Below, piece by piece: positions 26,888 through 28,238 of a stretch of DNA of 61,595 nt. The translations under genes and the position numbers were made by a program. Positions within the stretch are counted from its first letter, which is position 1. Each line of letters starts with the position of its first letter. Origin of the DNA: Spirochaetaceae bacterium UBA5200 (GTDB taxonomy: Bacteria > Spirochaetota > Spirochaetia > Treponematales > UBA12059); contig DHVU01000005.1 of the NCBI GenBank assembly GCA_002412825.1, positions 1 through 61,595 on the forward strand, in the 5' to 3' direction. A model generated the notes under the pieces. That model was not told the origin of the DNA. It worked only from the letters and a program-made list of their open reading frames with translations, and searched no databases.

Positions 26888-27480
26888 CAGGCTCCGGCAT
26901 AAGTAAAATTTTGGGTACTGTGAACGCTGGGAGGGGAACTATGGACGTACGGGGGGCGGGCGAGGCCAGGCTGGCCGAGCTCAAAGGGCAGCTTCTGTCG
27001 GTGCAGGGAACGCCGACGGAGGTGTACAGCCGCATCGTGGGCTACTACCGGTCGGTGCGCAATTGGAACGCGGGCAAGAGGGAGGAGTTCGGCAGGCGTA
27101 AGGAATATAGCTTTCCAAACGCGCAGCTTTGGGAAACCCCCTTGGCAAGCACTGGAGAATTAGAGGCGCGGAGCCCGAAGGCAGCCTTGCAGGCTGCGCC
27201 ACACGGCGCGAAAGCGCGCCCGGTCTCCTATCTGCTCTTTACCAGGCCCGGTTGCCATCAGTGTCCCCCCGTGCGGGAGTACATGGCGGGCACTCCGCTA
27301 TTAGGGCAGATCGTGGACGTGGACAGCGACGAGGGGCCCGACCTGGCGCGCGCATACGAGGTGATGGCTACGCCCACCGTCGTGCTCCTTGACGCCGACG
27401 GCGAAGAAGTGGCGCGCCTCTATACGCGCTCTCAGCTCGTGGCCTATATCGCGCCCGTCGCGGAAGCGAGCTACGCATAG
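26884..27480 (+). CDS. Glycyl-radical domain protein (NrdD C-terminal-like, EVYSRIVGYYRSVRNWNAGKREEF) fused to an NrdH/glutaredoxin-like redoxin domain (PGCHQC ... ATPTVVL)
   Basis: ATG 26884 overlaps the nrdD TGA (ATGA coupling). The RIVGY motif resembles the class III RNR glycyl-radical site, and the C-terminal CxxC thioredoxin-fold signature resembles NrdH CVQC. Confidence 0.6.
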   Translation: MTGSGISKILGTVNAGRGTMDVRGAGEARLAELKGQLLSVQGTPTEVYSRIVGYYRSVRNWNAGKREEFGRRKEYSFPNAQLWETPLASTGELEARSPKAALQAAPHGAKARPVSYLLFTRPGCHQCPPVREYMAGTPLLGQIVDVDSDEGPDLARAYEVMATPTVVLLDADGEEVARLYTRSQLVAYIAPVAEASYA

Positions 27481-27518
27481 AGCTTAGCGCACGGCCCGCG
27501 CCCCGCGCGGGCCTTCTT

Positions 27519-28238
27519 AAAACCAGCCTCATAGACTATCCGGGCAGAGTTAGCGCGGTCGCCTTCCTGCCCGGCTGTAACCTGCGCTGCCCTTACTGCC
27601 ATAATGCTGAACTCGTGCTCGAGCCCGACAGCTCGGGCCTCATGGAGTGGCCGCTGATACTCCGGCACCTGGAGCGCCGCCGCGGCCTCTTGTCCGGTTT
27701 GGTGCTTTCTGGGGGCGAACCCTGCCTGCAGCCGCGCTTGCCCGACATGGCCGCCGAGGCGCGCTCCCTGGGCTACGCGGTAAAGCTGGACACGAATGGC
27801 ACCCTACCCGCGGCCATAGCCCCCGTAGGCGCCGATTACATAGCTATGGACATAAAGTGCTCCCTGAGCCGCTATGGGCTCCTCTTAGGCCTACCCGCAA
27901 AGTACATTGTACCGGAAGCAGGCGTAAGCACGCCTTCAAGCGCTAGCTCGACGCTCGGGGCGGCCGTGGCTCAGAGCATGCGCATTATACGCGGCTTAGG
28001 CTGCGCCTACGAGTTTAGGATCACCTGCGCTCCGGGTATTTTCGGGCCAGAGGATGCGGAGGCTATATTGCCCTATATCGATAGCCGCGATACGATTTGG
28101 CTGCAGCCCTATAAGCCGGGCGCCGTGCTTGATCCGGTATGGGCGGCGAACGCGGGCGTGTATGAACCGGCGCTCATGGGCAAGCTGCTTGCGCTGCTGC
28201 GCCGGGCCGCGCCTAAAACCAGTATACGGGGCATGTAG
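27519..28238 (+). CDS. nrdG: Anaerobic RNR activating protein (radical SAM)
   Basis: [29 protein letters not shown] read in frame from 27519. No ATG/GTG/TTG exists in frame between the upstream stop at 27390 and the CX3CX2C motif (first Met codon is GTG at 27615), so the true start is undefined. Confidence 0.75.
   Translation, partial: [239 protein letters not shown]

Follow-up and report, generated by a model that had tools for sequence, protein, structure and literature searches.

Where does translation of a gene begin when its reading frame offers no start codon? The question is raised by nrdG, the gene for the radical S-adenosylmethionine (SAM) activase of class III ribonucleotide reductase, in a contig of Spirochaetaceae bacterium UBA5200 (assembly GCA_002412825.1, contig DHVU01000005.1, positions 1 to 61,595 of the forward strand; the whole stretch of 61,595 nucleotides is called the window below). 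It follows an open reading frame (ORF) that carries a glycyl-radical loop and a thioredoxin-fold domain. We think that nrdG is functional, that it starts at an AUA codon at 27477, which gives a product of 253 amino acids, and that it is translationally coupled to the upstream ORF, and we would put the probability of this at about 0.62. The features on which the question turns are the following.

26941..27480, plus strand: glycyl-radical/thioredoxin ORF, 179 amino acids from ATG 26941 (profile matches, AlphaFold2, Foldseek).
27463..27470, plus strand: GAAGCGAG, a weak Shine-Dalgarno-like stretch 6 nucleotides upstream of the ATA (duplex energy with a generic anti-Shine-Dalgarno sequence).
27477..28238, plus strand: nrdG, activase of class III ribonucleotide reductase (radical SAM), 253 amino acids if it starts at the ATA (TIGR02495, Pfam Radical_SAM).
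27477..27479, plus strand: ATA, the proposed initiation codon of nrdG, overlapping the upstream TAG as ATAG (-4 arrangement).
27576..27599, plus strand: CNLRCPYC, the CX3CX2C motif of the [4Fe-4S]/SAM cluster, upstream of the first canonical start (direct reading).
27615..27617, plus strand: GTG, the first canonical start codon of the frame, used by some automated annotations, which gives 207 amino acids without the cluster cysteines.

Read codon by codon, the nrdG frame (27477 modulo 3) contains no ATG, GTG or TTG from the TGA at 27390-27392 to the GTG at 27615, as the initial annotation had claimed, and this GTG does lie beyond the cluster cysteines C34, C38 and C41 (TGT 27576, TGC 27588, TGC 27597). 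The same annotation had seen a conserved NrdG N-terminus in the translation from 27519, had placed the end of the upstream ORF at TAG 27478-27480, and had taken that ORF for a glycyl-radical and redoxin protein; translation, frame reading and, for the last, profile matches, AlphaFold2 and Foldseek bear it out on all three points. Relative to the nrdG frame the TAG is shifted forward by one nucleotide, which puts nrdG in frame -1 with respect to the upstream ORF. Near-cognate codons of the nrdG frame are ATA 27477, ATA 27531, CTG 27567 and CTG 27582, and in the window the stretch from the stop at 27390 to codon 6 offers a single codon one mismatch away from AUG, ATA 27477, with no other upstream of codon 19 (codons are numbered from the ATA). 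A non-canonical initiator, ATA or CTG, had been among the explanations offered at first. The ATA at 27477 is supported, as the only near-cognate codon upstream of the translated residues, and the CTG part falls, since 27567 and 27582 are both downstream of conserved residues that are clearly translated.

Is the segment before the first canonical start translated at all? The comparison was made in a clade of eight distinct sequences, the window and L002, L003, L166, L004 (the same as L005), L165, L172 and L174, most of which came from look-ups of exact proteins; a scan of genome contigs gave one member, L005, and a scan of metagenome contigs gave no further members, only distant relatives (at most 50% identity). 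The NrdG proteins of the seven relatives are about 70-74% identical to that of the window where compared. Over codons 15-46 the variable sites are distributed 1/3/21 over the first, second and third codon positions, none of the five variable sites in codons 9-14 changes the amino acid, and codon 6 encodes Arg either as CGG or as AGG. The change at codons 6 and 9-14 is thus only synonymous, and translation therefore starts at or before codon 6. The ratio of nonsynonymous to synonymous substitution rates (dN/dS) of codons 9-46 is 0.04-0.07 against the window and 0-0.09 between the relatives, at a dS of 0.7-1.1, and that of the whole gene is 0.22-0.26, including comparisons wholly inside the start-less clade. 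The substitution pattern shows that strong purifying selection acts upstream of the first canonical start and that this segment is translated in the nrdG frame.

The arrangement at the junction is conserved too. In all eight sequences the upstream ORF ends with (AGC/AGT) TAC GCA TAG, the in-frame ATA that overlaps the TAG is invariant, and the distance from the ATA to the K of KTSLID(Y/F)PG is exactly 14 codons with no indel. A comparison of orthologous nrdG loci had been proposed from the beginning, and it finds the start-less layout in seven other distinct, related sequences. Gene callers start these orthologues at assorted internal GTG or TTG codons, with products of 217-245 amino acids. 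The outgroups L006, L007, L085 and L175 (50-63% identity) have both genes, with an ordinary GTG or ATG start of nrdG at a distance of 6-8 codons from the K, so that its absence is a derived trait of the clade. In nearly all of 111 nrdG loci with the N-terminal motif a canonical start stands 6-13 codons ahead of the K, and the only exceptions outside the clade are L073 and L029. At L073 (about 2110-2160) a CTG overlaps the upstream TGA as CTGA, 10 nucleotides after a strong Shine-Dalgarno sequence, GGGAGG, and at L029 (about 3985-4015) CTG ATC stands immediately 3' of the upstream TAA and is preceded by AAGGTGAT. These two putative near-cognate starts point the same way as the ATA.

Translated from the ATA, the product of the gene scores 159.3 bits with the TIGR02495 (NrdG2) profile, against a cut-off of 131.15, with residues 11-212 on positions 3-192 of 193, it matches Pfam Radical_SAM (E = 2.2e-12), and the SAM-binding GGE motif is present (LSGGEP) downstream of CNLRCPYC. 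By these matches the product is an NrdG2-type activase, predicted to generate the glycyl radical on NrdD with SAM. Like other NrdG2 proteins it has an N-terminal CX3CX2C, a typical first strand and the GGE motif, and its gene adjoins nrdD and nrdR; unlike them it lacks a canonical start, and from the ATA it has 8 extra N-terminal residues compared to the first position of the profile. One public annotation already uses the ATA start, and the AUA reading was thus anticipated: HAE22766.1 (P0242, 253 amino acids, in the P0001 cluster), from the same species, is the exact translation from ATA 27477 and carries the name 'anaerobic ribonucleoside-triphosphate reductase activating protein [Spirochaetaceae bacterium]'. 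Other public annotations of the gene give 207 or 198 amino acids.

How would a ribosome come to use such a codon? The most likely route would be termination-reinitiation, in which ribosomes that terminate at the UAG at 27478 reinitiate on the AUA at 27477, and the AUAG would then take the place of the usual AUGA in a standard -4 overlap. Overlaps of the NTGA type are the commonest coupling motif in prokaryotes (PMC12548453). The junction resembles the described -4 couplings (PMC12548453, PMC6728339) in that the genes are co-directional and start and stop overlap by 4 nucleotides, and ATGA overlaps are found elsewhere in the genome. It differs in that the tetranucleotide is ATAG and the start is ATA and not ATG, GTG or TTG, and the coupling here is a proposed one. 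A weak codon together with a weak Shine-Dalgarno sequence would keep the catalytic activase much scarcer than its substrate protein, and a weak start suits an activase that may work catalytically on NrdD. We infer the use of AUA, a dependence of initiation on upstream termination, and low expression as the outcome that selection has favoured.

Near-cognate starts that throttle expression are known from Escherichia coli, where infC and pcnB start with AUU. In that species the codons AUA, AUC, AUU and CUG bring about initiation at about 1-2% of the level reached with AUG (10.1101/063800). A natural ATA start has been described for hopF2 of Pseudomonas syringae, where it restricts the expression of HopF2Pto (PMC11641854). 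In all three genes, and presumably in nrdG, a single third-position mismatch to AUG is kept by selection where little of the product is needed. Unlike in hopF2, infC and pcnB, the nrdG ATA overlaps an upstream stop codon, is without a convincing Shine-Dalgarno sequence and is conserved across several uncultured Spirochaetaceae species. The searchable literature on AUA starts in coupled genes gave general background only.

Several points weigh against an AUA start. The stretch before the ATA, GAAGCGAG, reaches -4.8 kcal/mol, which is matched by 30% of random positions in the window and is not significant; the neighbouring genes have Shine-Dalgarno energies of -8 to -11 kcal/mol. It is conserved, but it doubles as the E-A-S codons of the upstream ORF. 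The combination of AUA and a weak Shine-Dalgarno sequence predicts a very low output. Codons 2-5 have no coding signature (variable sites 2/4/2), a pattern that fits a free N-terminal tail, and the first codon is hence not fixed by sequence alone; the AUA start is a predicted one. An automated pipeline guided by homology set the start of HAE22766.1. That GCA and TAG at the end of the upstream ORF do not vary would fit selection for the ATAG but is not significant: the share of amino-acid-invariant codons that are also invariant in their nucleotides is 36-43% across the eight sequences and 46-61% across four, and a test for extra nucleotide constraint in the last six codons of the upstream ORF was not significant, with L174 and L165 each changed there.

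The rival that survives best starts translation at the first Leu of LLKTS, codon 13 (27513), with M-L-K-T-S as the beginning of the product, and we consider it unlikely. Most members of the clade have TTG or CTG as codon 13 (TTG in L165 and L172, CTG in L003, L166, L004 and L174), a gene caller begins P0002 there, and a short N-terminus would not be absurd as the family profile begins near codon 9. In the window the codon is however CTT and in L002 CTC, which are not near-cognate, and its variants are scattered over the neighbour-joining tree like neutral synonymous drift; it thus behaves like any Leu codon and unlike a conserved start. Codons 6 and 9-12, which would be left outside the protein, change synonymously only and hence are translated, and codon 13 has no upstream Shine-Dalgarno sequence (-1.5 kcal/mol).

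Two further explanations would tie nrdG to the upstream ORF, and the hairpin within the beginning of nrdG bears on the second of them.

27493..27513, plus strand: GC-rich hairpin, a perfect 9-bp stem with a CCC loop, then TTCTTAAAA, 16 nucleotides downstream of the ATA (RNA folding).

The first of them, quite unlikely in our view, is an unconventional recoding at the AUAG without a slippery site, or a strictly obligatory reinitiation, which would tie the activase physically or stoichiometrically to the glycyl-radical/thioredoxin 'cartridge'. If it were true, this would, together with the split NrdD, be a modular class III reductase in which the radical piece, the reductant domain and the activase are one translational unit.

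The second is a -1 programmed frameshift (or other recoding) that fuses the glycyl-radical/thioredoxin protein to NrdG and so tethers the activase to its substrate loop. A frameshift or fusion of this kind had been put forward in the initial annotation, and we find it very unlikely. In its favour are the -1 position of nrdG relative to the upstream ORF, with that frame open for 84 nucleotides before the TAG, the GC-rich hairpin 12-14 nucleotides past the TAG in most members, and the near invariance of the upstream ORF in its last codons. Like the -1 fusions of dnaX and the IS-element transposases (reviewed in PMC5009743) the locus has a -1 downstream ORF without a start of its own and a hairpin downstream; unlike them it lacks a slippery site, and the hairpin is poorly spaced and shows no covariation. 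The region that would permit a -1 shift is these 84 nucleotides (in the window, L003 and L166), and it contains neither a full nor a partial X XXY YYZ heptamer, a search for which had been proposed near 27460-27480, nor any run of at least five A or T or at least six G or C, which speaks against transcriptional slippage as well. A tRNA-Ala on GCA that slipped by -1 at the stop could not pair anew with CGC, judging from the codons, and there is no Rfam match over 26600-27800 even at E = 1. The hairpin lies inside nrdG codons 6-13, is kept in most relatives and has a covariation term of +0.16 in the alignment fold; it starts at least 12 nucleotides after the TAG, whereas 5-9 nucleotides would be expected from the shift site, and it overlaps conserved codons; coding for R-P-x-P-R-A-G would account for its sequence. 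The outgroups, moreover, have both genes with an ordinary GTG or ATG for nrdG. The hairpin was also considered as a terminator, but the terminator scan did not flag it.

That nrdG is inactive or decaying, or that only a truncated product is made from GTG 27615 (207 amino acids) or ATG 27642 (198 amino acids), we regard as highly improbable, even if automated callers give exactly these two lengths and a canonical start is absent. The product from 27615 would be without all three cluster cysteines, and this GTG has no Shine-Dalgarno sequence upstream (+0.4 kcal/mol). A decaying gene would not be expected to be start-less throughout a clade and yet keep a dN/dS of 0.22-0.26 overall and of less than 0.1 in the N-terminal segment, or to encode a protein that, from the ATA, passes the curated NrdG2 cut-off, beside an nrdD and a glycyl-radical ORF that are intact.

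Frame breaks are often errors in draft metagenome bins, and L001 is a copy of L002 riddled with frameshifts, but the indel that was suggested to conceal a normal start codon, for which no direct support was found, is hardly credible when the truncated 207-amino-acid product (P0001) occurs on contigs of the same organism that were put together independently from five sequencing runs (L167-L171) and that all match the window in each of the 281 nucleotides around the junction, when seven other distinct sequences from related species have the same frame relation and spacing, and long ORFs are intact elsewhere in the window. L001 and L002 are one locus, with nrdR and nrdD of L001 broken into several ORFs, and L001 looks like a low-quality assembly; its frame breaks therefore show that artefacts are possible in such data and that a check across assemblies is needed.

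The other parts of the gene cluster are as follows, with the junctions of a separate run of genes at the end.

24329..24799, plus strand: nrdR, transcriptional repressor with an ATP-cone, the first gene of the cluster (Pfam Zn_ribbon_NrdR and ATP-cone).
24803..26887, plus strand: nrdD, catalytic subunit, 694 amino acids (Pfam NRDD, NCBIfam NF006126).
Start at ATG 28285, plus strand: gene for an Lhr-type helicase, the next after nrdG.
7206-7209, 8923-8926, 9672-9675, 11069-11072 and 12115-12118, minus strand: ATGA junctions of a six-gene run.

The order nrdR, nrdD, glycyl-radical/thioredoxin ORF and nrdG, with all genes co-directional, is the same in the window and in the relatives, and nrdR has the equivalent position in L002, L004 and L167. 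The G+C content of the window is 60%, and its host is, judged by the related loci, an uncultured Spirochaetaceae bacterium. There are eight ATGA -4 overlaps in the window, including the one at the nrdD junction (26884-26887). Six genes on the minus strand, at 6091-13266, are joined by such overlaps, and their repetition in this run indicates that tight translational coupling is common in this genome. No promoter-like or terminator-like site was found in a scan of 26700-28400. A listed ORF of 1553 amino acids from ATG 28054 runs over the end of nrdG (28054-28285); a start of the helicase at ATG 28285, preceded by AAGGAGA, is more likely, and it is the one called in the identical contig L167. 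In L178 (712-1505), from a Spirochaetales bacterium (GCA_004525355.1, 61% identical), no gene is called between the glycyl-radical/thioredoxin ORF and lhr, and an nrdG-like frame is still present there, with a GTG 12 codons before the K.

The substrate of the activase is itself divided between two ORFs. The nrdD ORF encodes an ATP-cone, the barrel, whose finger loop reads MCCR, and a Zn-ribbon, but no glycyl-radical loop, and ends at TGA 26885-26887; it covers positions 1-532 of 562 of the Pfam NRDD profile and positions 4-655 of 684 of NF006126 (1064 bits). The double-cysteine finger loop, MCCR, is the type tied to the use of thioredoxin (PMC9669993). The missing loop, RIVGYYRSVRNWNAGK, is in the 179-amino-acid ORF, which takes up NRDD positions 532-562 and NF006126 positions 649-682 and continues with a disordered, low-confidence linker and a thioredoxin-fold domain with CHQC. 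The AlphaFold2 model of this ORF has a mean pLDDT of 79, with more than 92 for residues of about 94-179, and Foldseek matches it to thioredoxins. Its ATG at 26941 is preceded by a strong Shine-Dalgarno sequence, GGGAGGGG (-10.7 kcal/mol), and the gene callers use the equivalent ATG in the relatives; an alternative ATG at 26884, which overlaps the TGA of nrdD as ATGA, has a weak one (-2.6 kcal/mol), and NCBI HAE22767.1 (221 amino acids) begins at yet another ATG, 26815, upstream of both. The thioredoxin-like domain has CHQC (27252-27263) in this clade, compared to CPNC in almost all other aligned members of the family.

This layout of NrdD in two ORFs is found in most Spirochaetota loci examined (including L002-L084), and the homologues of the glycyl-radical/thioredoxin ORF form 540 protein clusters of similar length (about 150-210 amino acids). 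In Fibrobacterota, Bathyarchaeia and several Firmicutes, NrdD is a single ORF, and there the thioredoxin-like tail is fused to it. No account of a split NrdD turned up in the literature that could be searched. A tiny stop-to-stop ORF carries the glycyl-radical motif in L030, L032, L041, L055 and L141 (Dojkabacteria, Acetomicrobium/Synergistales and others); 14-27 codons precede the motif and 13-19 follow it, and the ORF of L032 begins at 4688, right behind nrdG (4001-4681). The tiny ORFs suggest that the glycyl-radical piece may also have been separated from NrdD in other ways, independently.

Gene callers disagree on nrdG, with 253, 207 and 198 amino acids for one and the same DNA and 217-245 for the orthologues, and as most of these calls lose the iron-sulfur cluster motif or the first strand, an essential pathway to anaerobic DNA precursors would look broken in these bacteria. 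The finding also draws attention to the split architecture of the adjoining NrdD. If nrdG does start at AUA, it would be a case of natural near-cognate initiation, probably by reinitiation, that has been kept across several species, and it would be a test case for how strict the choice of start codon is in translational coupling and for how a very low ratio of enzyme to substrate may be set.

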